Virus record (IMG/VR): IMGVR_UViG_2540341061_000001
Coordinates: 149-64,148 of that record
From: a virus
Direction: 5' to 3' (one strand)
Length of the DNA: 64,000 nt
In this document: piece after piece, positions 47,001 to 64,000 of the stretch
Numbering within the stretch: the first letter of the stretch is position 1
Layout of the letters: each line of letters begins with the position of its first letter
Translations under genes and position numbers: made by a program
Notes under the pieces: generated by a model
Databases searched by the model: none
Seen by the model: only the letters and a program-made list of their open reading frames with translations
Told to the model about the DNA's origin: nothing

Positions 47001-47107
47001 AAACGGAATAAAGATTCTGGCCAGGATGATAGCGGAAGCATACATTGAAGAGCTATCTCAGAAACCACATCAAGATGATGAATTAAAGGAAATGAAGGAG
47101 GATGACA

Positions 47108-48088
47108 ATGCCAATCAAAGGTGTGACCGGAGTGGTGAGGCTTCCCCGCCTGGGAAAAGTAAGGCTGGGAGTAAAAAAAGAAAATGCTAGCGGCATATCT
47201 TATCCCTGCCCAACGGATCATTTTGTCTGCCCGGAAGAGGTCAAGAAGGTCTTTGGCGAAAAGCCTAAAGAGCTACGAATCATGTTCCCTACCGATGACC
47301 AGACCCAGTGGGCCAGCCAGTATTTAAGATGTTACTCGGCATCGAGAGGACTCGTTTGCCGTGGCGACGGTGAAACGGCAGTCGCCAAGATTGACACCCG
47401 AACCGGTGAGATTGCCAACAGAGATTCTGTTGAGATGGAAATGAAGGAAATCACCTGTAATCCGGCCAAGTGTACCTTCTATCAAGTAGCACGGTGCCGC
47501 CGAGTGATGAACCTACAATTCCTTTTGCCTGACTGTCCCGGCTTCGGCGTTTACCAGCTCGATACCAGCTCTTTTTATTCTATTGTAAATGTTAATTCCA
47601 GCCTTGAACTGATTCGCGGTACCTGCGGCCGACTGTCTATGATTCCGCTATCACTGAAGCTCGTGGAACAGGAAGTACAGCCGGAAGGAAAGAAAAAGAC
47701 TGTCCGGGTGCTCAGCATGACGGCGCCCTTTTCATTGGTAGAAATCCAACGATATGCACAAATTCCACCCGGGCAGGTTTTGCTCCTACCTCCGCCCGAC
47801 AATGAAGGACCTGATGATCTTTTCCCGGATGAAATCCTGGGTAAAGAAGAACCTGCGAAGACAATTTTGGGTTCGGACAAAGATTTAATGCTGCTCTGGG
47901 ATCGGGTCAAGAGTAAGGTCTGGCAAATGAACATGCAGGATTACCAGGTATCAAACTGGTTTCAAAAGAACTGTAACCTTGATGTCCATATAACCGACTT
48001 TGATCTTCTGACACCTCCGAACAGGATTAAGGCCGAGTACCTAGAAAACTTCTTGAAGACCCTGGAACGATATACAGATCGCAGCTAG
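47108..48088 (+). CDS. Gp3-like/recombination-directionality-factor-like protein
   Basis: LPRLGKVRLG, CRGDGETA, L.F.LPD..GFGVYQLDT.SF.S motifs, Cys cluster. Confidence 0.6.
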   Translation: MPIKGVTGVVRLPRLGKVRLGVKKENASGISYPCPTDHFVCPEEVKKVFGEKPKELRIMFPTDDQTQWASQYLRCYSASRGLVCRGDGETAVAKIDTRTGEIANRDSVEMEMKEITCNPAKCTFYQVARCRRVMNLQFLLPDCPGFGVYQLDTSSFYSIVNVNSSLELIRGTCGRLSMIPLSLKLVEQEVQPEGKKKTVRVLSMTAPFSLVEIQRYAQIPPGQVLLLPPPDNEGPDDLFPDEILGKEEPAKTILGSDKDLMLLWDRVKSKVWQMNMQDYQVSNWFQKNCNLDVHITDFDLLTPPNRIKAEYLENFLKTLERYTDRS

Positions 48089-48137
48089 AACACAGGATTC
48101 TAATCACCCCGTAGAAAAGTGTTCTTAAAGGATTGCC

Positions 48138-50333: not shown

Positions 50334-50619
50334 AAAGAAAAAGAGGACGCTCTATGAATGTGCTCACGCACGGGTGAGAAACGAAAGAATTTGCTGTGAT
50401 AAAGAATACCCTTTATCACAGGCATCCGTAGACGGCAGCCTGGATATCCAGCACCTCGCGGAAGGTAAACCATTAGCGCCCAAAATTTGCCAGCAATGCA
50501 TCAGCTTCGACCGGATTGGACCGCCTGTACCCGAAGAGGAAAGAGGCTGGCTCAAGGTAAAGGAGGCAGTAAAACATGACCGGAATCATCGGCAAGCTTT
50601 ACGAGAAGTTATGGCGTAA
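50320..50619 (+). CDS. Hypothetical Cys-containing protein
   Basis: CAH..CC..CQQC; GGAGG RBS. Confidence 0.6.
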   Translation: MAVSKKKKRTLYECAHARVRNERICCDKEYPLSQASVDGSLDIQHLAEGKPLAPKICQQCISFDRIGPPVPEEERGWLKVKEAVKHDRNHRQALREVMA

Positions 50620-50797
50620 AGTGGGCGGCAAGCCCTGGACGGAGATAGTTCGGGAAGACCAGAAAGCTTCACCCCTGGTGTACCTGCTCATCTTCCTGGG
50701 ACTGGGAGTACTGATGGCCAGACTAGCTGGTAAAAACTGGTGGCAGATACTGGTCGGGTTTTTACTCGGCATAATTTGTGGACATTTCTGGTGGTAA
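50576..50797 (+). CDS. Small two-TM membrane protein
   Basis: Two hydrophobic segments; GGAGG RBS. Confidence 0.7.
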   Translation: MTGIIGKLYEKLWRKVGGKPWTEIVREDQKASPLVYLLIFLGLGVLMARLAGKNWWQILVGFLLGIICGHFWW

Positions 50798-51149
50798 AGC
50801 CGTGGAAGACCAGGTAAAGAAAGCACAAAAGAGGATGACAGAAGCAACAGCAGAAATGATGTCAGGGTGGTTAAGCCAAATGTTGCAAGGTATGTGTAAC
50901 GACCCGGTATTGGGAGAGCTTTGGTCGGCCATGAAGATGAGAAGTCAATCTACCCATCATGCCAGCATTGATTCTTACCAGGTACTCGGGTTGGAGAAAT
51001 CTGTTACCGATGACCAGGTTAAAAGGCGGTACCGGGAACTGGTAGTAAAGCTGCACCCCGATACTGCCGGAGTCAAAGGGACTGAGTTTCTCTTCCAGCT
51101 CGTAACGGCAGCTTATCAGCAAATCTCAAAAGAAAGGGGGTGGCGATGA
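50778..51149 (+). CDS. J-domain (DnaJ-like) protein; start uncertain
   Basis: YQVLGL..VKRRYREL..LHPD..F..V..AY. Confidence 0.85.
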   Translation: MDISGGKAVEDQVKKAQKRMTEATAEMMSGWLSQMLQGMCNDPVLGELWSAMKMRSQSTHHASIDSYQVLGLEKSVTDDQVKRRYRELVVKLHPDTAGVKGTEFLFQLVTAAYQQISKERGWR

Positions 51150-52078
51150 TGAAAGAAGGCGACATGGAGCTACTTACCGAGATTGCGAAGTTTGAGGCAT
51201 CGGTGGACATGGAGAAAGAGTACCGGATTGGCTGGTCGTGGCGTCATGTAAGAATCTGGCCAGCAACACTCAGCCGGCTATTCAAGGACGGCTACCTGGA
51301 TAATGTCTTTCGTTCTAACTCCTTTACAGGATACAAGCTTACAGAAAAAGCTAAAGCTATCCTTCTATCGAACCAGCGAGAAGCTTCTACTGAATCTCAG
51401 TCAGAATCACCGATGAATCCCGGCGATGACCTATTTACAGATATTATCGGGCATGAGGACGTCAAGGCTTTGCTTAAAGCAATTCTTTTGTCAGAAAAGC
51501 CAGTACACGTCATGTTGACGGGACCGCCTGCTCTGGCCAAGACCCTGTTTCTCTGGGACATCGAGCAGACTTTTGGCGAGCAAGCGATCTGGCTGGTCGG
51601 CTCGGCTACTTCCAAGGCGGGATTGTGGGACCTGGTAGCCGAGAGAGAACCGAAAATACTCCTGATTGACGAGATGGACAAGATGAATGCCGTTGATATG
51701 GCAGCTTTACTGACGATGATGGAAGGCGGCAGGCTGGTCAGGGCTAAGCGAGGTCGAGAGCTCGACATCAACAATCCCCTCAAAGTTATTGCCGCCAGTA
51801 ACCGGTTGGAGAAGCTGTCTCCGGAGCTGCGTTCCCGCTTCGCTATCCGTAAGCTCAATGCCTATGGCCGCAGCGAATTCTTGACTGTGGTGCAAGGTGT
51901 ATTGGTACGTAAGGAAGGCTTGTCCGACGACCTGGCCGAAGAGATTGCGAGGAAGCTCGACGGTCGAAGTCAGGATGTCCGGGACGCTATCCGTATCGCC
52001 CGGCTGGCGCCGCAGGTCGGTGTGGATAGAGCAATAAACCTTTTACTGGGAGGTGAAACAGGTACAAGTTCAGACTAG
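51140..52078 (+). CDS. AAA+ ATPase (RuvB/MCM-like) with N-terminal winged-helix-like domain
   Basis: GPPALAKT, LIDEMDK, IAASN, LRSRF. Confidence 0.85.
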   Translation: MAMMKEGDMELLTEIAKFEASVDMEKEYRIGWSWRHVRIWPATLSRLFKDGYLDNVFRSNSFTGYKLTEKAKAILLSNQREASTESQSESPMNPGDDLFTDIIGHEDVKALLKAILLSEKPVHVMLTGPPALAKTLFLWDIEQTFGEQAIWLVGSATSKAGLWDLVAEREPKILLIDEMDKMNAVDMAALLTMMEGGRLVRAKRGRELDINNPLKVIAASNRLEKLSPELRSRFAIRKLNAYGRSEFLTVVQGVLVRKEGLSDDLAEEIARKLDGRSQDVRDAIRIARLAPQVGVDRAINLLLGGETGTSSD

Positions 52079-52245: not shown

Positions 52246-53067
52246 ATGGACGACCAGTTTTTAGAAGAAGTCAAGAAACGTAAAGAGCGGGGACAATCGG
52301 AAAGGCAGATGGCAACCGAGCTCGGTGTCAGCCGCAGTAAGGTCCACAATGCATTACAGGATCTCAAGCTAACTGAAACCGGCACTTCCCTGGTACCTGA
52401 AGACAAGCTGCGGGTAATTATTCGAGAAGAGCTGGAACGGGTCCGTACCGGAGAGGAAGAAGAGGCTAAGACAAGCAGCGAGTTTCCCATCATACGCAAG
52501 ATGGGCGGTGGTATGGAGATGATTGCTCCGGAGGCAGTACTCAAGCACTACATGGGAGGGACGCCGGAAGGTGAGGTTGAGCTTAGAGCTATTATGAAAT
52601 TCCGGGCGGCCATGTTGATGGTAATGGACCTGGTGAATATCCAGAAGGGTTCGGCGGAGGCTGACGCCAGGCGTATGGAGCCTATTCTAAGGCTAATGAA
52701 AGAGACACGCGAAGAGCAGGATGCGGCAGCGGCAAGGGCAAAGGCTTCCAGTGAGGAGATCGCAGAGCGAACCGCTCAAGCAACAGCAGGTCAACTATTT
52801 GGGGCAATCTCTCAAAGCAACACCCAGGTAAATAGCACACTTGCCCAGATCAAGCAGATGGTTGGTGGACAATCGAATGACCCTTTCAGCCAGGTTGTAA
52901 GCATGCTCCAGTCCATGCAGCAGATGTCCCAGATGTTTGGGATGCCATTACCCGGTATGATGCCGGGAGCGCCGCAGGGGGGCGGAATGCCCGGCGGTCA
53001 ACCGCCTTCGGACCCGCCGCCGATTGAAAAACACACTGCCAAAGAATGGGAGGAAAGAAATGTTTGA
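52246..53067 (+). CDS. N-terminal HTH, coiled coil, Met/Gln/Gly/Pro-rich tail
   Basis: SERQMATELGVSRSKVH HTH; low-complexity C-terminus. Confidence 0.7.
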   Translation: MDDQFLEEVKKRKERGQSERQMATELGVSRSKVHNALQDLKLTETGTSLVPEDKLRVIIREELERVRTGEEEEAKTSSEFPIIRKMGGGMEMIAPEAVLKHYMGGTPEGEVELRAIMKFRAAMLMVMDLVNIQKGSAEADARRMEPILRLMKETREEQDAAAARAKASSEEIAERTAQATAGQLFGAISQSNTQVNSTLAQIKQMVGGQSNDPFSQVVSMLQSMQQMSQMFGMPLPGMMPGAPQGGGMPGGQPPSDPPPIEKHTAKEWEERNV

Positions 53068-53996: not shown

Positions 53997-54209
53997 ATGG
54001 GTAAGTACGCAAGCTGGAACGAATTCGAGAAAAACGTCCCTATCTCCTACAAGGAGAAGGCCACTCCCGAGGCTTTCCGCACCGGGATGAACGGCATTGC
54101 ACCGACCGGACTGAAGGTTAAAGAGGGACGGGTCAAGCACTACGGCGATGGCGTGGATGGTAAGGGTGAGGTCGTGGTCGCCGGTTACAAGCGCGCTATG
54201 TTCGAGTAG
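53997..54209 (+). CDS. 70-aa soluble protein, first gene of the structural-like operon
   Basis: GAGGAGGT RBS; MGKYASWNEFEKNVP...YKRAMFE. Confidence 0.8.
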   Translation: MGKYASWNEFEKNVPISYKEKATPEAFRTGMNGIAPTGLKVKEGRVKHYGDGVDGKGEVVVAGYKRAMFE

Positions 54210-54338: not shown

Positions 54339-54551
54339 ATGTTCACAGCACAGCAACTGACCGGGCCGGTAGCACCGGGGCAAATGAGCCCGATGCAGGT
54401 CAGCGGTCCGGGCGCCTACTATCCCACACAAACCACTACTGACCCCTTCTCAGGCATGTTCACCAGTATGATGCCGATGATCATGATGATCATGATGTTT
54501 GCCATTCTTATGCCCATGATGAAAGGCATGACGGCATCAGCCAAGGACTAA
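54339..54551 (+). CDS. Met-rich single-TM small protein 1
   Basis: YYPTQT then DPFSGMFTSMMPMIMMIMMFAILMPMMKG; AGGAGG RBS. Confidence 0.85.
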   Translation: MFTAQQLTGPVAPGQMSPMQVSGPGAYYPTQTTTDPFSGMFTSMMPMIMMIMMFAILMPMMKGMTASAKD

Positions 54552-54595
54552 CCCCACAAATATATTATTTTGAGAATTTTAGGAGGTAATCAACA

Positions 54596-54799
54596 ATGTA
54601 TAAGGCACAGCAGATCGCCGGCCAGCAAGTTCGCCCCCAGCAGTACCAGTACGGCACGGTCAGTGGTTATTATCCCCTTCAGACCACCGACCCGATTTCG
54701 GGAATGTTCACCAGTATGATGCCCATGATCATGATGATTATGATGATGGCCATTCTTATGCCCATGATGAAGGGCGTCACCGGCTCCAGCAAGTCCTAG
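54596..54799 (+). CDS. Met-rich single-TM small protein 2 (paralog of 54339)
   Basis: YYPLQT then DPISGMFTSMMPMIMMIMMMAILMPMMKG; DNA-level similarity. Confidence 0.85.
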   Translation: MYKAQQIAGQQVRPQQYQYGTVSGYYPLQTTDPISGMFTSMMPMIMMIMMMAILMPMMKGVTGSSKS

Positions 54800-54831
54800 T
54801 GGAGGTGCAATTACATTAAGGAGGTTAATCC

Positions 54832-55410
54832 ATGAAAAACAAAATTGTTCCACAGCAATATGCAGGACAGCGGCCTCCGAAGGGTTGGGTGCCTCCCCTG
54901 GGACAGGAATTAACCCTCCTGGGAGTCTATGATAATGACTCCGGCTACTGGATGGGATTGCCGCTCCAGGTTCTGCGGGAAGCGCTGCTGACCGCTGAAT
55001 CTCTGCACACTGAAGACCGCATTGACGAGCGGGATAAAATCGAGGCCACAGTTCCTAACGCTTCGGCGCAAGATACCGTTAAAACCAAAGAGTTCGAGGT
55101 GCCTGCCGGTGAGGTCTGGTATCTCAACCGTCTCAACCTGATAACCGAAGCTGAGATTTCCGGCAATGTCCGCGTCTCCCGATTCCCCAAGGTCGATACA
55201 GTGGAAAAGAAGTACCTGGGGACCGACCTGGCAGCCAGCCAGAATGAAGATTATGATCTGGCAAGTCCCGGTCAACTCGGTGCTGATTTGAGGATCCTCG
55301 GGGGCGATAAGCTTACCGTGGTCGCCACTGTAACCGCAGTGGGAGGCACTACCGCCGACCGCAAAGTTACCCTGAATGTTTACGGCCGGAAAGCCAGGAG
55401 ACTGGTATAG
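54832..55410 (+). CDS. Beta-rich protein, candidate jelly-roll virion protein
   Basis: VPAGEVWYL and alternating-hydrophobic strands ending VTLNVYGRK; strong RBS. Confidence 0.6.
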   Translation: MKNKIVPQQYAGQRPPKGWVPPLGQELTLLGVYDNDSGYWMGLPLQVLREALLTAESLHTEDRIDERDKIEATVPNASAQDTVKTKEFEVPAGEVWYLNRLNLITEAEISGNVRVSRFPKVDTVEKKYLGTDLAASQNEDYDLASPGQLGADLRILGGDKLTVVATVTAVGGTTADRKVTLNVYGRKARRLV

Positions 55411-55430
55411 CGGCATAAGGAGGTAATCCT

Positions 55431-55958
55431 ATGCCCTATACCATGACACCGCCGGGATATAGGGCTGTCCTAATCGGACAAGCCGTTGCTATCGAGGAAC
55501 TGGGCACCTTCGCCCCGCTTGAAGAAAGTTCGGCTGAAGGTGCTCTTTTCTTAATGAGGCTCGACTTTACCGAGTCTCCGTCTACGGAAGCACTGTCTCA
55601 GCTTGAACAGGCGTGCTTTGACGCGGGAGTCGAATTGTGGCCGGGTTATAGCCACGTTGTCTTTGCCGATGTAGATCAGCCCACAGTTTATCTAGCCTGG
55701 CAAAAAGGATTTGCCTGGCTGCCGATCATTATCGGACTTCTGGTTACCACCGTTTTGCCGCCCTTGTTGGGTTCGCTGGTTTGGTGGTTAATGCCGGAGT
55801 CCTTAAAGAACCTGATCAGCGGCATCGTCAATATGGGAATCATGCTTTTGGTCATGCTTCTTATCAGCAAGCTTATGCCCTCGTTCACCCAGGATAAAGA
55901 GAAGGTAAGGAAAGTAAAACAGGTAGAACCGGAGAAATTAGAGGAGGCGAAGGCATGA
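55431..55958 (+). CDS. Membrane protein with two C-terminal TM segments
   Basis: WLPIIIGLLVTTVLPPLLGSLVWW; GIMLLVMLLISKLMP. Confidence 0.8.
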   Translation: MPYTMTPPGYRAVLIGQAVAIEELGTFAPLEESSAEGALFLMRLDFTESPSTEALSQLEQACFDAGVELWPGYSHVVFADVDQPTVYLAWQKGFAWLPIIIGLLVTTVLPPLLGSLVWWLMPESLKNLISGIVNMGIMLLVMLLISKLMPSFTQDKEKVRKVKQVEPEKLEEAKA

Positions 55959-56131
55959 GCCAGTACCCCATCGAATATCAAAATTATTACCCCTACCAGT
56001 ACCAGGCTTCGCAATGGCAGGGCGTTGTGGGCACGCTGATGGGTGTGGTCATGCTGATAGCTATGGGCGCCTGGGCGCTATCCCTGGTAAAGAAGGCGTT
56101 CAAGGGCGAGGAGGTGAAGTTCCCGCTATGA
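55955..56131 (+). CDS. 58-aa coat-like single-TM protein
   Basis: Not in ORF track; MSQYPIEYQNYYPYQYQ...GVVMLIAMGAWALSLVKKAFK; GAGGAGG RBS; ATGA overlaps on both sides. Confidence 0.8.
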   Translation: MSQYPIEYQNYYPYQYQASQWQGVVGTLMGVVMLIAMGAWALSLVKKAFKGEEVKFPL

Positions 56132-56691
56132 CGACACAGGTAAGCGTCATGTCCGGCTCTTTGGGCGACATCTTCTGGGACCTGCCGCCATGGATGACCT
56201 ACACACCCGGGTTCGACCTGGGTTGCAGTATTTACGTGGCTAATCCCACCGGCGTAGAAAAGGAATATGCCCTGATGGCCAGGTTGAATCGGGAAAGCAC
56301 CTTGATTAGTGAAGAGGCTTTGCCGGTATTCGGTTACGCCTGGTTCAAGGTTGCTCCCGGCGATTTCGTCAGGCTCCGAGGCGCCCTACGTTTTAACGAA
56401 AGCGATGCCGACCTCACGGTGCTCCTGGTAGAGCGAGAGACAGAAGAGATCACTGACTCCGCAGCTACCCGGCTGGTGGCGCCGCAAGGGACGAGTGCTT
56501 TGCCACCGACGTGGCCCGGGTCCACCAGTACTACTGATAACGGCTTCAACTGGAACTCACTACTGGCCATGATGCTTCCGATGATGATGCTGGGGATGGT
56601 CGTGATGTCCGCTAAACCTCAGCAAGAGAAGGTGGAAGCGAAAACCACGGTTGAAACCCAGAAGTTACTTCCGGAAGGGAGGAACCGGTAA
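56128..56691 (+). CDS. Beta-rich ectodomain with Met-rich TM anchor
   Basis: LLAMMLPMMMLGMVVMSAKP; ATG 56128 overlaps previous stop. Confidence 0.75.
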   Translation: MTTQVSVMSGSLGDIFWDLPPWMTYTPGFDLGCSIYVANPTGVEKEYALMARLNRESTLISEEALPVFGYAWFKVAPGDFVRLRGALRFNESDADLTVLLVERETEEITDSAATRLVAPQGTSALPPTWPGSTSTTDNGFNWNSLLAMMLPMMMLGMVVMSAKPQQEKVEAKTTVETQKLLPEGRNR

Positions 56692-57158
56692 TGCCTGGAG
56701 AGTTTTATGTTGAAAACAAAGCGGAAAAGGTCAGCCTTGAGACAGTAGAGTCCAGTCTTGCTGGTCTAAACACTAAGGCGGATGCCATCAAGGCACGCAC
56801 CGATAACCTGGCTGGGGAAAATCCTTGGCAGGGAGCAACGACGGCTGACTGGCAAACAGTCGAGGCTAATATCGTTAGCATTGGCACTGCCGGTATCCGG
56901 AATAAGATACATGACCTGACTCTCAGCATTCATAACCTGGTGGGCACACAAATCAGAGTGAGGCTTTATAAGAAGGTCAATGGGACCGAGCGGAAAGTAT
57001 ATGACCAGTCTTTTGATGCAACTTCTGATCCGGTAGGACTGCCGGTTATCAACGGCACCTGGGCCATTCACGATGTCCTGAGAGTGACCTTACAAAGTAA
57101 TAACGCCGCAGATAACGGGAAAGCCGTGGATTATGACTACATGCTGGAGGCGATGTAA
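56691..57158 (+). CDS. Coiled coil plus beta-sandwich, candidate virion protein
   Basis: SLETVESSLAGLNTKADAIK then beta-rich domain. Confidence 0.65.
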   Translation: MPGEFYVENKAEKVSLETVESSLAGLNTKADAIKARTDNLAGENPWQGATTADWQTVEANIVSIGTAGIRNKIHDLTLSIHNLVGTQIRVRLYKKVNGTERKVYDQSFDATSDPVGLPVINGTWAIHDVLRVTLQSNNAADNGKAVDYDYMLEAM

Positions 57159-57388
57159 TGAGCCTGCTCGCTATCGCGAAAAGCGTTACTGCCCTCTCGC
57201 AGATTGAGATAGATATCGATAAAGACTGGGATGCGAAAGAGATCTTAAATATCGGCTCTATTGTAGCCGGTATGACGCATGGCGATTTCGTTTACTACGA
57301 CGGCTCAATATTAGCTAGATTACCCGCTGGCTCGCCTGGTCACAATTTACAATGCTTGGGTCCTGGCAAAAACCCGAGGTGGAGTTAA
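57158..57388 (+). CDS. Stand-alone copy of the spike N-terminal domain
   Basis: LSQIEIDIDKDW..GMTHGD..RLPAG..NPRW, shared with 57393 and 60768. Confidence 0.7.
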   Translation: MSLLAIAKSVTALSQIEIDIDKDWDAKEILNIGSIVAGMTHGDFVYYDGSILARLPAGSPGHNLQCLGPGKNPRWS

Positions 57389-57392
57389 GAAC

Positions 57393-58217
57393 GTGACTTT
57401 GCTAATTAAACCGAATGCAGTCTCTAGCCTGTCGCAGCTATCCATCGATGCTGACAAAGATTGGGGTGGTAGAGCAATTACTAACCTGAAAGGGTTAGCT
57501 GCTGGCATGACCCAGGGAGACCTATTTTTTCGAGGCATCGCCTCAATCCAGAGATTACTTCCAGGGGTTGCTGGGCAGTTCCTGATAACCAAAGGGACGG
57601 GAGCCAACCCTGAGTGGGGAGATTATGCCGGAAGGGTAGAAAGGCTTTTCTTTTTGCTATCCACTATGCCGGTGAAAAGCCATTCGGTGATTGCAACCAA
57701 TGTTCCAGGGGTTCAATCTCCGGTACCTCTAATCATCCAAAATGCAGGTGTATTCTTGGTTACTCCTTATGCCAGCCCATTAGCATGCGGTGGAGCTGTT
57801 TACCACGATGATTCACCTTTAATTGATACTGACGAGACTACTCAGGCTAATAATGCTACCGCTAATGATATTCACTTACTTCCAAGTCCAGGCGCGGTTG
57901 GCGATGGTTTTTATTTCGGACTCAATAATCCCTTCGATCGTGTCGTGGTCAACATCGGAACGGCTGGAGTGGGAACGTGGACAATCACCTGGAAATACTA
58001 TAACGGAGTAACCTGGACTGCTCTTACCATCAAAACCGATGAAACTTCGCACTTCAGAACTTCGGGATTAAAAGGCTGTCACTGGGTTAGACCATTAGAT
58101 TGGACTGCGACTCTGATTGCAGGAATGAATCTCTATTGGGTTAAGTCCGAAATAACAGCCTACACAAGTATGACCACCCAACCCCTGGGAAATCAGGCAT
58201 GGTTAGGCAGATATTAA
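57393..58217 (+). CDS. Spike/receptor-binding-like protein A
   Basis: Shared N-domain; C-domain DET.QAN..RP.DW..LYW..QPLG shared with 60768. Confidence 0.65.
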   Translation: MTLLIKPNAVSSLSQLSIDADKDWGGRAITNLKGLAAGMTQGDLFFRGIASIQRLLPGVAGQFLITKGTGANPEWGDYAGRVERLFFLLSTMPVKSHSVIATNVPGVQSPVPLIIQNAGVFLVTPYASPLACGGAVYHDDSPLIDTDETTQANNATANDIHLLPSPGAVGDGFYFGLNNPFDRVVVNIGTAGVGTWTITWKYYNGVTWTALTIKTDETSHFRTSGLKGCHWVRPLDWTATLIAGMNLYWVKSEITAYTSMTTQPLGNQAWLGRY

Positions 58218-58237
58218 GGCCTGTATGGGAGAAGCAA

Positions 58238-58960
58238 ATGAACAAAATCTACATTGAACCGCTGGCAAGCGAAAGGAAATACCGGGACTTATCCAGGCTC
58301 GGCAGGGAGCTAAAAATCCCGATTACTGAGTGTTTTCTGGAGCTCAAGGTGACTATGCCGGATGGCAAGGTTGCTCATCATCACAAGCAACGCAGCCATT
58401 CCTGGGTAAGAAATGGCTATAACGTTTTAACCTGCATCATGATGGCCATAAATTATAACGACGCCACTTATGGTCCTGGTTTTCTAAATCTCAGGGCAAC
58501 CAATGGAACCATTCAGAAAAGAGCCGGCGCGATTATCTACGGCTATAACGATCCTGACTGGGAAAGCACTGGGTGTGGCTACATGGCAGCTGCCGGTAGC
58601 TTGAACAACGGAATAGTCGTTGGATCCGGAGTTGCCGCCGAGTCTTTTGAGGATTATGCCTTACAAACGCAGATTGCTCACGGCACTGGCGCCGGACAGC
58701 TTTCCTATGCCCAGTGTGAAGCCCCCGTCAAATCATACGATGCGGGTACCAAGACCTATACCTGCGTATGGAACAGGTATCTTAACAATAACTCTGTAGG
58801 GGACGTCACCGTTAATGAAGTCGGCTTAATAATGTCCTGCAATACGAACTATGGTTACAGGGGTATGGTCAGCCGGGACAAACTCGCTGCTTCCGTGGTG
58901 GTTGCCAGTGCAGGTCAATTGAAAGTCAGCTATACGTTTTCGGTGGTATTCCCCGCATAG
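58238..58960 (+). CDS. Fibre/spike-base-like protein A
   Basis: QRSHSWVRN, GIVVG, GQLSY, NNNS.GD.TVNE shared with 61629. Confidence 0.65.
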   Translation: MNKIYIEPLASERKYRDLSRLGRELKIPITECFLELKVTMPDGKVAHHHKQRSHSWVRNGYNVLTCIMMAINYNDATYGPGFLNLRATNGTIQKRAGAIIYGYNDPDWESTGCGYMAAAGSLNNGIVVGSGVAAESFEDYALQTQIAHGTGAGQLSYAQCEAPVKSYDAGTKTYTCVWNRYLNNNSVGDVTVNEVGLIMSCNTNYGYRGMVSRDKLAASVVVASAGQLKVSYTFSVVFPA

Positions 58961-58978
58961 GAGTGCTTTATAAAGGAC

Positions 58979-60241
58979 GTGAACGAAATGAGATATTCAG
59001 TAATCGCGAAAGGAATAACGCCAGCGCAGGTTGAGGTGGAGATCCGTAAGCTGGGCATAACCGATTTCAAACCTGCCAGGCTGTTGGGGCAGTTCTTTTG
59101 CGAGCTCAGCGAAGAAAAAGTCAGAGCTCTATCAGCCGTCTCCGGTATTGTCTTAAAGCCTATCAAAGACTATAAAGCCGAGCAGGTGCTGAGTGAAGTG
59201 GCACCGGTTGAGAGCCTTTCGGATGTATTTTATTTGCTGCGTTCATATTTCAATCCGCCACTTACCGGGACCGGACTCACCGTAGCTGTGTTAGACAGTG
59301 GTATCAGGAAAACCCATCAGTCTCTAAGAAGCAAAGTCGTCTACGAGGCTAATTTTACAGATTCGCCGACGGCCGATGATGTTTTCGGACACGGGACTCA
59401 GGTTGCCTTCATCATTGCCGGCGGTATGCATGCCATAGGTGAGAAAGCTGGTGTTTCTCCCAGCGCTTCCATCATGAATATCAAGGTAATCAATGACGAT
59501 GGCATTGGCAGCGATGAAGGTATCGTCATGGGAATTGAGCGTGTCTGTGGGTTAGCCGAGCAAGCGAGAAAGAACGGGCTCTGGATAACCGATGATTTGT
59601 ATCCCAACATCATCAACCTCAGCCTGGGAGGTGAGGATGACGGTGATGCCGACAATCCAGTGCGGGCAGCTTGCCGCAAGGCAAGCACTGAATATGGTCT
59701 GGACGTTATTGCCGCCGCGGGAAACTCCGGTCCGAAAATGACTACCGTTATGCTCCCGGCCTGTGACCCGGAGGTTATTGCTGTGGGCGCAGTTGAAACC
59801 AACGGCGAGCTGGCTATTTGGGAAAAATCATCTCGCGGACCAACGGTACAGGGTGAGACCAAGCCCGACTTCGTTATCTGGGGTACCGACCTTGAAATGG
59901 CGAGTCATCAGAAAGACGATGAGTATCTTGTGAAGTCGGGCACCAGCTTTGCCGCTCCCATGCTGTCGGGGCTGGCCGGTCTACTTTGGGAGAGTGGCAG
60001 AAGGGCTTACGGAGAAGCCTGGGTATTCAGCTGGCGAGAGGCCAAGAAACTGGCCCCCTATTTTTCGACCAAACCGCAGGATGCCCCGGTCAATAAAGAT
60101 AACGTCTATGGCTTCGGGCTCCCTGCGATGGGCTCGATGCTGGGACAGGTATCCCAAACCGATTCAACGACACAACAGGGCACAGAAGTATTTCCCATGT
60201 TCATGATGATGGCTATGATGGCGAGCATGGTAGGAGCGTAA
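58979..60241 (+). CDS. Subtilisin-like S8 serine protease with Met-rich C-terminal tail
   Basis: VAVLDSG (D), GHGTQV (H), AAAGN, SGTSFAAP (S); ends PMFMMMAMMASMVGA; no N-terminal signal peptide seen. Confidence 0.95.
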   Translation: MNEMRYSVIAKGITPAQVEVEIRKLGITDFKPARLLGQFFCELSEEKVRALSAVSGIVLKPIKDYKAEQVLSEVAPVESLSDVFYLLRSYFNPPLTGTGLTVAVLDSGIRKTHQSLRSKVVYEANFTDSPTADDVFGHGTQVAFIIAGGMHAIGEKAGVSPSASIMNIKVINDDGIGSDEGIVMGIERVCGLAEQARKNGLWITDDLYPNIINLSLGGEDDGDADNPVRAACRKASTEYGLDVIAAAGNSGPKMTTVMLPACDPEVIAVGAVETNGELAIWEKSSRGPTVQGETKPDFVIWGTDLEMASHQKDDEYLVKSGTSFAAPMLSGLAGLLWESGRRAYGEAWVFSWREAKKLAPYFSTKPQDAPVNKDNVYGFGLPAMGSMLGQVSQTDSTTQQGTEVFPMFMMMAMMASMVGA

Positions 60242-60244
60242 ACG

Positions 60245-60571
60245 ATGGCAGACAGCGAATTAGTTAAATCCCTGATTGCACTGGGCGGAGTGCCCCTTAT
60301 CCTGGGATTCGTACAGCTTTTCAAGCCCTTTATCTCGGATACCCGCTACTATCCTTTGCTGGCGGTTGCTATGGGATTAGTGATTAACCTGGTGGCCAGC
60401 TGGGCGCTCGGTGTCACCGCCATGTCGGACTGGGTAGCAGCAATATTCAACGGCATCATCGCTGGTATGGCAGCCAGTGGGGTTTACTCCACGGGTTCCA
60501 CGCTGCGGGAGGGTCCGGCAGCCGATAAAAATAACCGCTCAACTGAAGGAGAGACTGATGAAACTAAGTAG
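60245..60571 (+). CDS. Holin-like multi-TM protein
   Basis: Three hydrophobic segments; GIIAGMAASGVY motif. Confidence 0.55.
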   Translation: MADSELVKSLIALGGVPLILGFVQLFKPFISDTRYYPLLAVAMGLVINLVASWALGVTAMSDWVAAIFNGIIAGMAASGVYSTGSTLREGPAADKNNRSTEGETDETK

Positions 60572-60758
60572 AAACCTGGCGATAGGACTGGAAACCGTGG
60601 GTTGCTGTATCACGGTTGCCGGGGTCGTTACAGAGTGGGCTACGGGGGCTGACTACGGCTATTGCATTATCACGGGCGGAGCGCTGGTGGTTAGTTTCGG
60701 TAGCATGATATTCGCCAAGGTCGTCAAACGCAACTGGGACGATGGAGATAAGGGTTAA
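60558..60758 (+). CDS. Small two-TM protein
   Basis: GGAG RBS; two hydrophobic stretches. Confidence 0.65.
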   Translation: MKLSRNLAIGLETVGCCITVAGVVTEWATGADYGYCIITGGALVVSFGSMIFAKVVKRNWDDGDKG

Positions 60759-60767
60759 GGAGTAGCA

Positions 60768-61619
60768 ATGAGCTTATTGCTTAAGGGAGCCGCTAGACTT
60801 TCCCAACTTGAAATAGACACCGATAAAGATTGGCAGGCAAAGGGAATGACCAATCTTAAAAGTATTGCCGAATCAATGAGTCACGGCGATATTGCCTTTC
60901 GTGGGAATGACATCCTTGAAAGGCTATTGGCAGATGCCGGCAAAGGGTATAGCTTCCTGAGAAGTCGTGGCCCTGGGCTATCGCCGGTCTGGCAGGATAT
61001 TGAGAGTTTGGTCCAGTATCTGACCGGTTCAGCCAACAGGGCGCTGGCATTTGACCTTTCCATGCCTATGCCAGCAATGAGTGTCGCTCATATCACTGGT
61101 CCCGGCGGCGGGGGGTCTTCTTCTCCAGTCCTTAGTATTCCGGCCCCAGTATTTAACAGGGAAGTCTTGGCGACTACAGTAAATCCGGTTGGTGGTACGG
61201 TTTCACACAACGATGACGTCGGCGACAGCGATGAGACCGCCCAGGCAAATGATGATACGGGAAACGATATAACACTTCTCCCAGCCGATGGCTCTATCAA
61301 TGATTACTGTGCCATGGGACATTCTGGGCTCTTTGATGCAATCGCTGTCCTGGTTGGACAGGTAGGCGCTAATTACACCCTTGCTTATGAATATTCCAGG
61401 GGTATCGGAACATGGGGAACACTGACAATTAAACACAATAGCACAAGTGATTGGAAAGCGGCAGGAAAAGGCTGGCTCACTTTCGCTCGTCCTCCTGACT
61501 GGGCAACTGATACCCTCGCCGGATTAACCCTCTACTGGATAAGGACGCGGGCTGCCAGTATCAGCGGTGGTTTTCTCCAGCCTTTAGGAACACGGGCATG
61601 GATACTGGTTTACGCGTAG
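60768..61619 (+). CDS. Spike/receptor-binding-like protein B (paralog of 57393)
   Basis: Same N- and C-domains as 57393-58217. Confidence 0.7.
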   Translation: MSLLLKGAARLSQLEIDTDKDWQAKGMTNLKSIAESMSHGDIAFRGNDILERLLADAGKGYSFLRSRGPGLSPVWQDIESLVQYLTGSANRALAFDLSMPMPAMSVAHITGPGGGGSSSPVLSIPAPVFNREVLATTVNPVGGTVSHNDDVGDSDETAQANDDTGNDITLLPADGSINDYCAMGHSGLFDAIAVLVGQVGANYTLAYEYSRGIGTWGTLTIKHNSTSDWKAAGKGWLTFARPPDWATDTLAGLTLYWIRTRAASISGGFLQPLGTRAWILVYA

Positions 61620-61628
61620 GAGATTAAG

Positions 61629-62342
61629 ATGACAGGAGCATTTTTAGAAACTGAGTATGACGATCTGAGAAAGCTGGCTAAAAAGCTGCATATCCTACTT
61701 CCTGAGGCTTTCTGGGAGTTTGAGGTCAGGGACAAGAACGGTCTGACTCTGGCACGACACAGGCAGCGGAGTCATAGCTGGGTCAGGAACGCCTATAACC
61801 TGATGGTTTGCCAGGCAGCCGCAGTGCCCGGTGATTTGGCCGTCGGACTGGCTGTCGTTGATATTAACGGAACCGCCAGGTCAGATGCTACCACTCAACC
61901 TGCTTCCGGGCTATCCAGCGGCGGTGCCAGTAACTCCAGTATCTACGTAAACCTGGGTAACGGCATCTATGCCGGAGCCGGCGTTGACTTGTTTGGCATC
62001 GTGGTTGGGACAGGTAACAACCCGGAGAGTCTGGAGAGCTATGCCCTGGCAACAAAGATAGTTAGCGGAAACCTGGCTGGTCAGCTTTCTTACAGCGCAA
62101 CCGACCCGCCCACGATATCCACTATCGGGACTACCAAAACAGTGGCATGGGTGAGGTATTTCAATAACAATAGCGGCGGCGATATTACGGTCAACGAGGC
62201 AGGGGTTTACACAAAGGGTACCTACGACAACTCGAGTGCGACTTTTATGCTCTGTCGGGACCTGCTCGCCGGTGGAGTTGTTGTTCCGAATACGGGGCAG
62301 CTGAAGGTAACTTATACTCTCCAGCTCACTTATCCGGCTTAG
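61629..62342 (+). CDS. Fibre/spike-base-like protein B (paralog of 58238)
   Basis: Shared motifs; ends GQLKVTYTLQLTYPA vs GQLKVSYTFSVVFPA. Confidence 0.7.
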   Translation: MTGAFLETEYDDLRKLAKKLHILLPEAFWEFEVRDKNGLTLARHRQRSHSWVRNAYNLMVCQAAAVPGDLAVGLAVVDINGTARSDATTQPASGLSSGGASNSSIYVNLGNGIYAGAGVDLFGIVVGTGNNPESLESYALATKIVSGNLAGQLSYSATDPPTISTIGTTKTVAWVRYFNNNSGGDITVNEAGVYTKGTYDNSSATFMLCRDLLAGGVVVPNTGQLKVTYTLQLTYPA

Positions 62343-62353
62343 GAGAAGTAATA

Positions 62354-62737
62354 GTGGCACAGTATGCGGACATCATCGAAATAATTGCTCCCAGCCAGGC
62401 AGCATCGGGCAGCATGGTGGATATTACCATCAGGGTAAAAAACACCTATTCCGGTGCTATCGCCATCATGATGGGCGGCGCTCTGGAATACGGCGTTTCT
62501 CCATGGCCAGGCATTGATGTTCCGGAGAACTGGGCGAATGTGGATGGCGGGGCGGTCCATTCATTCAGTGGGTTCTTCATGATGCCGGATGCCCGGGTGA
62601 CCATCCATGCCTACAGTTACTGGTACGGCGCCGACGGCTACTGGCATTTCGATGACGAGATGACGAAAACCATCAACCTGTCGGCGCTGACGCCCCAGGT
62701 GAGCGAGTTTAAGATAGCAGACTTCTACAAAATGTAA
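62354..62737 (+). CDS. Ig-like beta protein with shared C-terminal motif
   Basis: Ends PQVSEFKIADFYKM. Confidence 0.7.
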   Translation: MAQYADIIEIIAPSQAASGSMVDITIRVKNTYSGAIAIMMGGALEYGVSPWPGIDVPENWANVDGGAVHSFSGFFMMPDARVTIHAYSYWYGADGYWHFDDEMTKTINLSALTPQVSEFKIADFYKM

Positions 62738-62748
62738 GGAGGCACACC

Positions 62749-63327
62749 ATGAAATTGAAAACACTGTCTATAGACCTCGGAGAGTTTAAGGCTCTCCAAG
62801 AAAGTGCTCTGGGACAAATGCCGGAGCCGTCCGCGGCTGGCTGGTATATTGACCCGCGTACCGGGGAGCGTGTTTTTTATGACCCGGATAGCCACAAGTT
62901 CTATACCCTGGCGGGCGGCATCTATATCCCCTTGGGCTATATGAATCCGGCCCCGAAGCAGGTAACTTTGGCCCCGGGGGAAAAGCTCAGGATAAATATG
63001 TCCTTCAAGTATTCGGGACCGGCAATCAGCAGCGCCATCTGTTATTACTCCATCGGAGTCTATGGACTATTCGGCTTTGATGAGAAGATGGTGGGGCAGA
63101 ACTCGAAGAGCCTTCCCCAGTATACGACGCCGACCCAGGTAACTGACTCATATACGTTCACTCTGCCGACGAATGTGGGTAATGACTGGGACGACATCTA
63201 CTGCAAGATATACGGCGGCTCACCGGGTGTTCCTCAAACCCTGTTTGGTTATGAGCAAGCCCTGCTGATTATAGGCAAAGACCCGACCATCAGTGAGTTC
63301 ATGATTGCAGATTTTGCCAAGGTGTAG
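62749..63327 (+). CDS. Ig-like beta protein with shared C-terminal motif
   Basis: Ends PTISEFMIADFAKV. Confidence 0.7.
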   Translation: MKLKTLSIDLGEFKALQESALGQMPEPSAAGWYIDPRTGERVFYDPDSHKFYTLAGGIYIPLGYMNPAPKQVTLAPGEKLRINMSFKYSGPAISSAICYYSIGVYGLFGFDEKMVGQNSKSLPQYTTPTQVTDSYTFTLPTNVGNDWDDIYCKIYGGSPGVPQTLFGYEQALLIIGKDPTISEFMIADFAKV

Positions 63328-63336
63328 GAGTAGAGC

Positions 63337-63810
63337 ATGGCACTTGAAATAGTCTTTGCACCGATGGCGCTTGAGCCAGGAACGTTCAACGTAGGGGATA
63401 AGGTCCGGGTGACCGTCTCCTTCAAGTACGTCATCGGTGTGAACACCACCGTAAAGCTGCTGGCTGGTCCTTACTACACAAACCTCTTCGGCAAGCACAT
63501 GGTCAGTTCCTGTGTAGGTCAGGCTGATATAGATTTGCCGTCGTCTTCCACACCGGCTGATGGAACCGCCACGGTGGATTTCATACTCATTGCTAAATCC
63601 CTGGGTGGCATTGAGAACGGCACCTATGGCTTAAGGGTCTGGATTGAGGATACCAGCGCTATTGCCGAGCAGGATAACGTCATTATCGTCTCTGGTAATA
63701 CCAGTGGTGGGGATATGTTTTCGTCAATGATGCCGATGGTAATGATGTTGATGATGATGGGCATGATAATGCCGATGACCCAGCAAATGGGTGAGGGAGT
63801 CGAGGAATAG
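63337..63810 (+). CDS. Ig-like domain with Met-rich TM anchor
   Basis: GDKVRVTVSFKY..; DMFSSMMPMVMMLMMMGMIMPMTQQ. Confidence 0.8.
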   Translation: MALEIVFAPMALEPGTFNVGDKVRVTVSFKYVIGVNTTVKLLAGPYYTNLFGKHMVSSCVGQADIDLPSSSTPADGTATVDFILIAKSLGGIENGTYGLRVWIEDTSAIAEQDNVIIVSGNTSGGDMFSSMMPMVMMLMMMGMIMPMTQQMGEGVEE

Positions 63811-64000
63811 TGAAAGCCTACCTGGAACCGGAAGAGGTGGAACGGCTTGAGCAGTCGGCAGAATATCTGCGGGACAGGCTGCTTATCCGTTTGCTCTTTC
63901 ACCTCGGTTGCCGCGTCTCCGAAGCTTTGGGGATCAAGGTAAGCGACATCGACTTCAAACAGGGCTTGGTAACCATCCAGCACCTGAAGCAGCGAATTAA
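63810..64000 (+). CDS. Tyrosine recombinase, catalytic domain starting at the N-terminus (runs off the window)
   Basis: GTG 63810; RDRLLIRLLFHLGCRVSEALGIKVSDIDF box I. Confidence 0.85.
   Translation, partial: MKAYLEPEEVERLEQSAEYLRDRLLIRLLFHLGCRVSEALGIKVSDIDFKQGLVTIQHLKQRI

Follow-up and report, generated by a model that had tools for sequence, protein, structure and literature searches.

A methionine-rich helix module on unrelated proteins of a tail-less virus-like element in Dehalococcoidia, and its possible role as a tail anchor

The virion proteins of filamentous phages (Ff pVIII, pIII with its C-terminal anchor, and pVI/pVII/pIX) are membrane proteins first, and similar hydrophobic helices hold them in the particle; the coat protein of Pf3 lacks a signal peptide, and its N-tail is uncharged. 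Many small membrane proteins are also encoded by tail-less viruses that contain a membrane, such as PRD1, P23-77/IN93, the haloarchaeal sphaerolipoviruses and the pleolipoviruses. To our knowledge, no common Met-rich module has been described for the latter viruses, and our literature search found none. The Dehalococcoidia, the hosts considered here, have a membrane and an S-layer without a peptidoglycan wall.

The closest published system is IME1, a set of elements integrated in Dehalococcoides at a GC content of 44–45%; they are proposed to be dsDNA viruses, either budding or filamentous, whose coat proteins are small and hydrophobic (bioRxiv 10.64898/2026.09.15.751708). Its 14 conserved orthologous groups run from the recombinase and resolvase to the primase-helicase, with the repressor last; a Zot/pI-like ATPase whose gene precedes those for the TM proteins, a serine resolvase and an opposite-strand repressor inside the module are among its features, and methionine is nowhere mentioned in the preprint text (bioRxiv 10.64898/2026.09.15.751708).

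The locus described here lies for the most part in a window of 64,000 nucleotides, by which we mean the whole stretch of DNA under study. It is an integrated, tail-less virus-like element of ~21 kb and ~51% GC that houses all the Met-rich-helix genes, and its gene set combines many small membrane proteins with spike-like genes. The same element is present in the cultured D. mccartyi DCMB5. Like IME1, it resides in this host class, is integrated, measures ~20 kb and has no tailed-phage hallmark genes; both have a primase-helicase, a tyrosine recombinase, and a module of several small predicted-TM proteins with a CARDB-domain protein and a protein flagged 'PEP-CTERM'. However, the recombinase of IME1 is at the opposite end and IME1 has no protease, whereas the present element is marked by a Gp3-like factor, DUF3854, a J-domain protein, a RuvB/MCM-like AAA+ protein, an S8 protease and its higher GC content. 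No match to the Zot/pI-like ATPase (PF05707) was found among the element proteins scanned. Judged by the preprint's description, gene order and content both differ, and IME1 appears to be a different element family. The relevant features, with their strand, are as follows.

47102..52078, + strand: replication/regulation module (Gp3-like factor, DUF3854 primase-helicase, J-domain protein, RuvB/MCM-like AAA+ ATPase)
52246..53067, + strand: 273-aa protein; weak HTH at the N-terminus, Met/Gln-rich polar amphipathic stretch (52900-52968)
54339..54551, + strand: A1 gene, 70-aa mini-protein; P/Q/G/T-rich N-tail with a YYPxQ motif, Met-rich helix, short K-containing tail
54456..54521, + strand: Met-rich helix of A1 (residues 40-61), set between two prolines at a 13-residue spacing
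54596..54799, + strand: A2 gene, 67-aa mini-protein, paralogue of A1
54704..54769, + strand: Met-rich helix of A2 (residues 37-58)
54832..55410, + strand: 192-aa conserved beta-rich protein without the helix, directly 3' of the mini-proteins
55431..55958, + strand: 175-aa protein with two TM helices, TM1 ordinary, TM2 (55812-55868) mildly Met-rich
56128..56691, + strand: A3, 187-aa protein; Ig-like beta-sandwich (residues ~10-120), Thr-rich linker, Met-rich helix (56560-56607), charged tail
58979..60241, + strand: S8 (subtilisin-family) protease; Met-rich C-terminal tail (60188-60238) formed by the last 17 residues, up to the stop codon
63337..63810, + strand: A5, 157-aa CARDB-like protein; beta-sandwich N-domain, Met-rich helix (63715-63777), acidic tail
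63810..64000, + strand: start of a tyrosine integrase that continues past the window

Three more conserved element genes follow the integrase on the contig, outside the window.

When the whole 76,510-bp contig was scanned in six frames for six or more Met in 15 residues, exactly five places were returned, all on the + strand from 54,444 to 63,798 and all at gene C-termini. The first-pass annotation had reported a Met-rich helix on five or more different proteins; the peptides it quoted are present in the five translations at the ORFs it gave, and no further such stretch exists in the contig. It had also named the 55431 protein as a weaker case, rightly, as TM2 of this 175-aa protein has three Met here and up to nine in homologs. 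Five or six carriers can thus be counted: two ~70-aa proteins, a two-TM protein, an Ig-like protein, the S8 protease and a CARDB-like protein. Between the helix and the stop there are 0–12 residues in A1, A2, A5 and the protease, and ~27 in A3. The best 19-residue windows of the five carriers hold 9, 10, 7, 7 and 11 Met, compared with mostly 0–1 (maximum 4) in the other TM helices of the element, the 73-aa protein, the 108-aa protein and TM1 of the 175-aa protein all having 0–1. By our own arithmetic, with a Met frequency of ~3% and ~1.5e5 windows, nine or more Met in 19 residues would arise by chance with p ~2e-9 per window, or ~3e-4 times in total.

The mini-proteins A1 and A2 have no Pfam or PHROG match. 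A1 has 359 homologs in Dehalococcoidia, with MMPMIMM invariant in the family alignment, and A2 lies directly 3' of A1 in every case. In both, the N-tail is nearly devoid of positive charge and the short C-tail contains Lys. Among the larger carriers, A3 has its true start at 56128; its Ig-like domain is predicted by AF2 with pLDDT >90 and gives generic Ig-like Foldseek matches, its charged tail has a conserved terminal LPxGR motif, and AF2 confidence is low in the Met-rich helix region. The protease belongs to subtilase family S8 (Pfam PF00082, 5.8e-37, 128 bits where the cut-off is 21.8), with the catalytic motifs DSG at 106, HGT at 138 and GTS at 321. A5 has 535 homologs, and its N-domain is paralogous to the adjoining 192-aa gene product (62749-63327), whose family it matches with an hhalign probability of 90%.

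The helix module is real, homologous between its carriers and confined to this element family. Families A1, A2 and A5, along with some members of A3, share a pre-motif, (T)D-x-x-S-x-M-F-x-x-M-M-P-M, and a P-x12-P frame. When the profiles of the A5 and A3 families (157-aa and 187-aa) were compared, the alignment covered the helix only, so that the earlier statement that the helix is appended to unrelated domains is true at the profile level. The accompanying statement that it is always C-terminal is correct throughout the window, but not for P0155, a distant relative (DUF192/ArdC-like) in which the complete module, pre-motif included, is an internal TM; the P0155 homolog in this element has an ordinary TM instead. 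A helix profile searched against 1.84 billion (1.84e9) representative proteins gave 59 significant matches, every one a relative of the element's own genes, in agreement with the suggestion that an HMM of the anchor would be confined to such elements. Conservation in homologs, which had been in question, is also evident, since at 20+ Dehalococcoidia loci of 40–98% identity, including that of D. mccartyi DCMB5, the same 5–6 syntenic genes bear the helix. The pattern MMxMxMMxMM was met with 12 times across five whole genomes, nearly always at identified element loci (one of the 12 lies on another contig), and not at all in the control. As far as these genomes show, the motif in hosts is confined to element copies, and the helix is element-specific rather than a generic feature of host TM composition. 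Across 301 genomes of the class, MMPM-type matches are paired at 216–248 bp, in most copies with a third match 5.3–8.7 kb downstream.

We propose, with a probability of roughly 50%, that the helix serves both as a tail anchor, modular and specific to the element, and as a co-assembly helix for particle proteins. The first-pass annotation had inferred a sorting or co-assembly signal that would recruit cargo, the protease included, into one putative membrane patch or envelope. A single hydrophobic segment within ~30 residues of the C-terminus, as expected of tail-anchored proteins, is seen in A1, A2, A3, A5 and the S8 protease, but not in the 175-aa protein with its two TMs. A hydrophobicity scan and reading of the carriers found no N-terminal signal peptide or TM-like segment; their N-termini are either of low hydrophobicity or have a segment that is a conserved beta-strand without a basic n-region. 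Since signal peptides are lacking, the carriers would be inserted into the membrane post-translationally, in the manner of tail-anchored proteins. With these they share the extreme C-terminal position of one hydrophobic segment, the missing N-terminal signal and a moderate hydrophobicity, although tail-anchored proteins are a topological class and not a family, and neither Met-richness nor a common pre-motif is a feature of that class.

The hydrophobicity of the helices is marginal, the crude Hessa sums falling between about -0.2 and +1.8 kcal/mol and reaching +5.4 in the S8 tail, while Leu versions of the A1 and A5 helices would score about -4.2 and -3.2 kcal/mol. Because it is only marginal, we propose that the helices would be most stable when packed like-with-like. 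The element would make two abundant one-helix mini-proteins, A1 and A2, and larger proteins (Ig-like, CARDB-like, S8 protease, two-TM) that bear the same marginally hydrophobic, Met-lined helix. Packing would bring these carriers together in a single structure, either derived from a membrane or a particle coat, composed chiefly of A1/A2, where the protease would adjoin the N-tails of the mini-proteins. We infer that the carriers would insert into the membrane, pack like-with-like, enter the particle and bring the protease close to its substrate. The flanking charges are ambiguous as to whether the N-domains would stay in the cytoplasm, with a basic C-flank in A1/A2 but an acidic one in A5; orientation may thus differ between carriers, which makes simple parallel packing a less straightforward model. 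In addition, the tails of the S8 family have 15–18 residues with T/S/N/Q/R among them, and being so short and polar may not span a bilayer.

A somewhat unlikely alternative is that these are ordinary membrane anchors of a lineage-specific composition, the helix having spread by duplication or copying from one element gene to another and been retained simply as a working TM, with Met carrying no sorting or assembly information, so that any TM would do. Shared descent or gene conversion alone could explain the likeness of homologous helices, and Met counts show no clear co-variation between different helices across elements. Moreover, in the A3 and 175-aa families L/I/V/F often replace Met, down to 2–4 Met; given such free exchange, Met is not indispensable everywhere. 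However, Met itself is constrained in the helix: over 54 distinct sequences, column entropy is 0.13–0.67 bits for Met versus 0.85–1.9 bits for other hydrophobic columns. In the S8 family, whose tail has diverged (pairwise identity 0.41, against 0.81 in the catalytic domain), 13 of 13 tails still hold 6–10 Met in their last 22 residues (27–45%), compared with 2.3–3.8% Met elsewhere in the protein. The Met-poor composition of the element's other TMs also speaks against ordinary anchors.

It is unlikely that the helices, instead of being bilayer anchors, form the hydrophobic core of a filamentous or spindle-like proteinaceous coat comparable to the inovirus coat or fusellovirus VP1, in which A1/A2 would be the major coat subunits and the larger carriers minor coat proteins joined through the same helix. 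The layout of A1/A2 (N-tail, helix, Lys-containing C-tail) does resemble that of small one-helix coat proteins such as that of Pf3, the marginal hydrophobicity would suit such a core, and for IME1 of the same hosts a filamentous or budding virus whose coat proteins are small and hydrophobic has been proposed. On the other hand, Pfam, NCBIfam and PHROG searches gave no sequence or family match to filamentous phages and no pI/pIV (Zot/secretin) genes in the element; no other inovirus or fusellovirus marker and no PHROG match to VP1-like families was found, and the AAA+ protein is RuvB/MCM-like. The element is also dsDNA-sized at ~21 kb, and its helices, unlike those of filamentous phages, are Met-lined and constitute one homologous module.

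The 273-aa protein at 52246, which the first-pass annotation had listed as another weak anchor, was excluded as such, its Met/Gln-rich stretch being polar and amphipathic. This stretch has a Met every 3–4 residues, comparable to the TM-binding grooves of SRP54-M and Sgt2-C.

A bolder and decidedly doubtful extension is a 'methionine zipper', a self-recognising address tag that would route any protein into the particle, with the stretch of the 273-aa HTH protein as a soluble receptor or chaperone and with conditional, reversible anchoring. That this protein is a soluble partner of the Met-rich helices is an idea only. If it were true, the protein would link the genome with the membrane proteins that bear the tag, and marginal hydrophobicity, perhaps with oxidation sensitivity, would make anchoring conditional and reversible.

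The carrier tails could also be read as C-terminal sorting signals that are cleaved or modified by an exosortase or archaeosortase in the PEP-CTERM/PGF-CTERM manner, which we consider very improbable. They do resemble these modular tags of unrelated proteins in having a Thr/Ser-rich linker, a short Pro-containing motif, a hydrophobic stretch and sometimes Lys, and the S8 protease of the module could be the processing enzyme; but the protease itself bears the tail, the carriers have no signal peptides, and no basic cluster is constant, A5 being acidic and the S8 tail stopping at the helix. A sortase route is further disfavoured because no carrier tail matched a CTERM sorting-domain model (NCBIfam at E up to 1, Pfam at E up to 0.01) and the exosortase family PF09721 was not found in five element-bearing genomes, with a positive control genome. 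Methionine chemistry as the function, whether thioether binding of soft metals such as Cu(I), for which Met-rich sites are known in copper-handling proteins, or an oxidation-sensitive switch in a strict anaerobe, where the helix would lose its hydrophobicity once Met is oxidised, is hardly credible, as Met lies on every face of the hydrophobic helix and not in MxxM-type loops, no metal-handling genes are among the element's genes, and nothing links the module to redox.

Returning to the proposed tail anchor and co-assembly helix, a candidate particle protein without the helix is the 192-aa product of 54832, possibly a jelly-roll. Its AF2 model (pLDDT 60) gives VIA Z 5–8 to jelly-roll folds, capsid proteins of membrane-containing viruses included, although these matches also take in PHM and nucleoplasmin and are not discriminating. 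Apart from this weak match to their capsid proteins, the element resembles the PRD1-type viruses in being tail-less, ~20 kb in size and rich in small membrane proteins, but differs from them in that Pfam and PHROG searches found neither a packaging ATPase of the FtsK/HerA type nor any recognisable capsid family. Finally, RNA-library contigs span the helix-gene module, a weak hint that it is transcribed.

When the 76,510-bp contig was scanned over its full length in six frames for stretches with at least 6 Met per 15 residues, only five places were returned, all on the + strand between window positions 54,444 and 63,798, each located C-terminally in a long ORF. The five Met-rich peptides quoted in the first-pass annotation are all present in the window translations, which confirms that observation. 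The carriers are as follows.

54339-54551, + strand: A1, a 70-aa mini-protein with a Met-rich helix
54596-54799, + strand: A2, a 67-aa paralog of A1 with a Met-rich helix
56128 (true start, as annotated in DCMB5), + strand: A3, a 187-aa protein
58979-60241, + strand: S8 protease, 420 aa (PF00082 at 5.8e-37; DSG/HGT/GTS motifs present)
63337-63810, + strand: A5, a 157-aa protein with a Met-rich helix

The best 19-residue windows of A1, A2, A3, S8 and A5 hold 9, 10, 7, 7 and 11 Met, respectively; by our own arithmetic, with Met near 3%, the chance expectation of at least 9 Met per 19 residues is about 3e-4 for a contig of this size. Apart from S8, no helix carrier has a match in Pfam, NCBIfam or PHROGs. 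Two weaker anchors had also been proposed. The second TM helix of the 175-aa protein at 55431 is real (3 Met here, up to 9 in homologs), but the candidate in the 273-aa gene at 52246 was rejected as a membrane helix, since the stretch is polar, amphipathic and Met/Gln-rich. This conserved stretch (52900-52968), located after a weak HTH and with a Met every 3-4 residues, resembles the TM-binding grooves of SRP54-M or Sgt2-C, and the analogy gives rise to the idea that it might bind Met-rich helices. The antisense ORFs over the helices (54419-54544 and 54590-54853, minus strand) are His- or Ile-rich; they are by-products of ATG runs and not genes.

Two mobile elements share the window, a minus-strand prophage from position 1 to about 45 kb and the element carrying the helices, in which all genes from about 45-46 kb onward lie on the + strand.

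1-45243, minus strand: separate tailed-type prophage (DUF2800, family-A DNA polymerase, DUF927 primase, SNF2 helicase)
43552-45243, minus strand: large serine recombinase of the prophage

The prophage is the probable reason for the viral classification of the record. The second element starts with a Gp3-like directionality factor, a DUF3854 primase-helicase, a J-domain protein and a RuvB/MCM-like AAA+ ATPase, followed by about 20 genes without a family, the S8 protease and a tyrosine integrase at 63810. Three further genes are conserved 3′ of the integrase, on this contig beyond the window (about 64447-66884 in window numbering), at L032:9397-11741 and L033:11162-13551, and thus in independent contigs.

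First gene after the integrase: 101-aa paralog of the 70-aa gene at 53997
Second gene: DUF192-TM-ArdC-N protein with an HExxH motif
Third gene: protein of 176-178 aa

Thus, the integrase is not the last gene, and the element extends to about 66.9 kb, which gives it a length of roughly 21 kb. The flanks compared for att sites share no direct repeat of more than 12 bp; the right end lies beyond the integrase and the boundaries are approximate. Family-library searches recognised no terminase, portal, tail or conjugation genes in the element.

The host class is clear from the homologs of A1 and A5. The A1 family has 359 members, of which those named belong to Dehalococcoides mccartyi, Dehalogenimonas or Chloroflexi, and the 535 of A5 include many from complete genomes of D. 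mccartyi; moreover, synteny with D. mccartyi DCMB5 (CP004079.1:286,594-306,803) extends over the whole element, and the A1 homolog of that strain is WP_015406861.1. Some homologs of the 70-aa mini-protein (WP_338739154.1 and others) are named "cell division protein FtsH" at NCBI, almost certainly a spurious transfer from the hydrophobic stretch. A protein-guided scan of IMG/VR gave no relatives, and deposited phage genomes gave no match to the 192-aa protein of the element (54832..55410), with the window's own genome or near-identical records possibly outside either search. The exact DNA pattern was met in IMG/VR in two giant-virus contigs only, assumed to be unrelated to the element, and protein-atlas look-ups returned only uncharacterised Chloroflexota and viral clusters. 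In a single transcriptome of 2014, most of the element is overlain by RNA-library contigs, and three metatranscriptomes have short contigs on the 53.9-54.8 kb stretch; all these runs were picked with that same stretch, and such contigs are not proof of transcription.

The helices of A1, A2 and A5 can be aligned without a gap across 33 residues, and share an acidic or Thr-rich pre-motif, the pattern M-F-x-x-M-M-P-M-h-M-M-h-M-M, a variable hydrophobic half and a closing P-M. All of 54 distinct sequences keep the first Pro, and 96% have the second. The T-D-W-[ST]-[SA]-M pre-motif of A2 is also found in some A3 proteins (loci L016 and L026), and when the A5 and A3 families are compared as profiles, the helix region alone can be aligned. 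The N-domain of A5 is paralogous to the adjacent protein at 62749, which lacks an anchor (hhalign probability 90%), and that of A3 is predicted to be a confident, but generic, Ig-like sandwich. In the distant metagenomic relative P0155, the module is present in full, together with the pre-motif, as an internal TM of a DUF192/ArdC-like protein (a relationship assigned by reading), whereas the homolog on this contig, a 514-aa DUF192/ArdC-N protein, has an ordinary TM. Together with the shared helix, this difference suggests that the module has moved between genes of the element family in a cassette-like manner. Two other C-terminal features were seen: the anchor-less beta-sandwich proteins at 62354-62737 and 62749-63327 share the motif SEF-x-IADF-x-K-[VM], and the charged tail of A3 past the helix (56608-56691) ends in K-x-L-P-x-G-R, kept in nearly all 17 homologs.

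A scan with one genome per species gave 23 loci, all in Dehalococcoidia save for a few contigs binned as Phaeospirillum and Treponemataceae, which are probably mis-binned. These loci have more than 20 genes in common at 40-98% identity, and the same syntenic genes keep their Met-rich C-terminal helices in every locus long enough to show them.

Met per best 19 residues across loci
A1: 6-12
A2: 6-12
175-aa protein: 2-9
A3: 3-9
S8: 6-10
A5: 7-11

Other TM helices of the element hold 0-1 Met (the 73-aa and 108-aa proteins and the first TM of the 175-aa protein) or 0-4 (the 58-aa protein). Met counts co-vary only weakly between helices, with a rho of 0.68 for one pair and of −0.36 to 0.46 for the others over 29 loci that are not independent.

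The methionines themselves are under constraint. In a 54-sequence alignment, the Met columns have an entropy of 0.13-0.67 bits, as against 0.85-1.9 bits for the Ile/Val/Leu/Phe columns. The difference is seen even though changes of Met to Ile, Leu or Val require a single base and are normally well tolerated in membrane helices. In the S8 family, the mean pairwise identity is 0.81 for the catalytic domain, 0.69 for the linker and 0.41 for the tail, and all 13 tails have 6-10 Met in their last 22 residues (27-45%), compared with 2.3-3.8% Met in the remainder of the protein; composition is thus conserved here without sequence conservation. A3 and the second TM of the 175-aa protein are less strictly constrained, and L/I/V/F often take the place of Met in them.

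The check suggested in the first-pass annotation, a profile search with the anchor, places it largely in such elements. A 33-column helix profile run against 1.84 billion representative proteins gave 59 matches at E up to 0.001, which by reading are A1/A2-like mini-proteins and A5-like and A3-like proteins or fragments, with three kinds of exception (mini-proteins with Lys-rich N-termini, P0155 and one apparent chimera). One of the proteins with a Lys-rich N-terminus, 60 aa long and bearing this helix, is encoded next to a tyrosine integrase on sediment contigs (L027:3707-3889 and L028:1513-1695), in an island of very small size that may represent a remnant or a different element type. At the DNA level, MMxMxMMxMM had 12 matches in five whole Dehalococcoidia genomes, with Pro at the first x in all of them and 0 control matches; nearly all lie at identified element loci, and one is on a further contig. 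MMPM-type matches in about 10 of 301 class genomes form pairs 216-248 bp apart, with a third match 5.3-8.7 kb downstream in most copies. This arrangement is the signature of A1/A2/A5, and a genome can hold up to three copies of the element. The remaining matches occur singly here and there, in numbers little higher than with the reversed-pattern control; the unpublished genome G249, with an (ATG)n run only, was left out of our claims. By the profile and DNA-pattern results, the helix is therefore neither a sorting signal used throughout the host nor a habit of host composition, and its profile is a near-perfect detector of the element family.

The carriers have no N-terminal signal-like hydrophobic segment, which, with the C-terminal position of the helix, would fit tail anchoring. 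Hessa-scale sums, which are crude and not position-weighted, are about −0.2 (A1), 0.0 (A2), +1.4 (A3), +1.8 (A5) and +5.4 kcal/mol (S8 tail), and fall to about −4.2 (A1) and −3.2 (A5) when Leu replaces Met. With sums near or above zero, the helices are only marginally hydrophobic, and marginally hydrophobic segments rely on partner helices for stable insertion; it is this dependence that leads us to infer co-assembly. The S8 tail, of 15-18 residues with T/S/N/Q/R, may be an interfacial or docking helix instead of a full TM. On its C-terminal side, the helix is flanked by basic charges in A1/A2 but by acidic ones in A5, and the carriers may therefore not all be oriented alike. The N-tails of A1/A2 are almost free of positive charge, a layout like that of the Pf3 coat protein.

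The first-pass annotation had taken the helix for a sorting or co-assembly signal. What stands of that proposal is a shared, conserved, element-specific module, whose existence, homology, conservation, exclusivity and physical properties are observed; the mechanism is our interpretation. We favour, with a probability of about 0.5, a modular tail-anchor/co-assembly helix for particle proteins. A1/A2 would be abundant and would make up a membrane-derived structure or coat, into which the Ig-like, CARDB-like, protease and two-TM proteins would be drawn through their own copies of the helix, by like-with-like packing. The S8 protease would thereby come to lie beside the conserved mini-protein N-tails, which bear a YYPxQ motif 8-10 residues before the helix in three mini-proteins (54339-54551, 54596-54799 and 55955-56131), and this motif is a possible cleavage site for the co-anchored protease.

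Among the alternatives, the helices could be ordinary anchors whose likeness reflects shared descent only, an account that we regard as rather unlikely but that deserves serious attention. A protein-only coat formed by the helices is a more doubtful option. A sorting signal recognised by an enzyme is quite improbable, since the carriers have no signal peptides, no CTERM-type model matches them and no exosortase gene was found in five element-bearing genomes. Metal or redox chemistry of Met as the function is the least credible proposal.

Among published systems, IME1 of Dehalococcoides, an integrated element family of the same hosts, comes closest; its members are proposed to be dsDNA viruses, budding or filamentous, that have small TM proteins (bioRxiv 10.64898/2026.09.15.751708). 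By its description, IME1 is set apart from the element here by a Zot/pI-like ATPase, a resolvase and a repressor placed internally on the opposite strand, as well as by a different gene order, a lower GC in Dehalococcoides and the lack of a protease, in contrast to the S8 protease of the present element. Methionine is not mentioned in the text of the IME1 preprint (bioRxiv 10.64898/2026.09.15.751708). Zot matches were found in 1 of 121 class genomes, and in one of five element-bearing genomes at sub-threshold level only. We therefore treat the present element, set apart from IME1 by the latter's description, as a putative second, separate family of tail-less virus-like elements; it is apparently undescribed, and apparently carries a modular C-terminal anchor or assembly helix.

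Cell surfaces are known to use common C-terminal tags that bring unrelated proteins together, and in principle so do membrane-assembled viruses. A homologous methionine-lined helix is not known to have been described as such a tag, and the terms "methionine-rich transmembrane" and "Met-rich transmembrane" do not occur in the literature searched. If Met is required, the module would offer a natural case for what methionine does in membrane helices beyond leucine, with adaptable packing, marginal insertion energy and redox sensitivity as candidate roles. It also serves as a marker for an element family that is widespread in Dehalococcoides and Dehalogenimonas, genera used for the cleanup of chlorinated solvents.

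Two further observations concern the remaining proteins of the element. The 192-aa protein was modelled with a pLDDT of 60, and its matches to jelly-roll folds are no better than middling. A cassette of two genes, for proteins of about 280 and about 240 aa, occurs in duplicate at 57158-58960 and 60768-62342, and a 76-aa copy of its conserved N-terminus is also present; the duplicated genes may be exchangeable spike or receptor-binding genes.
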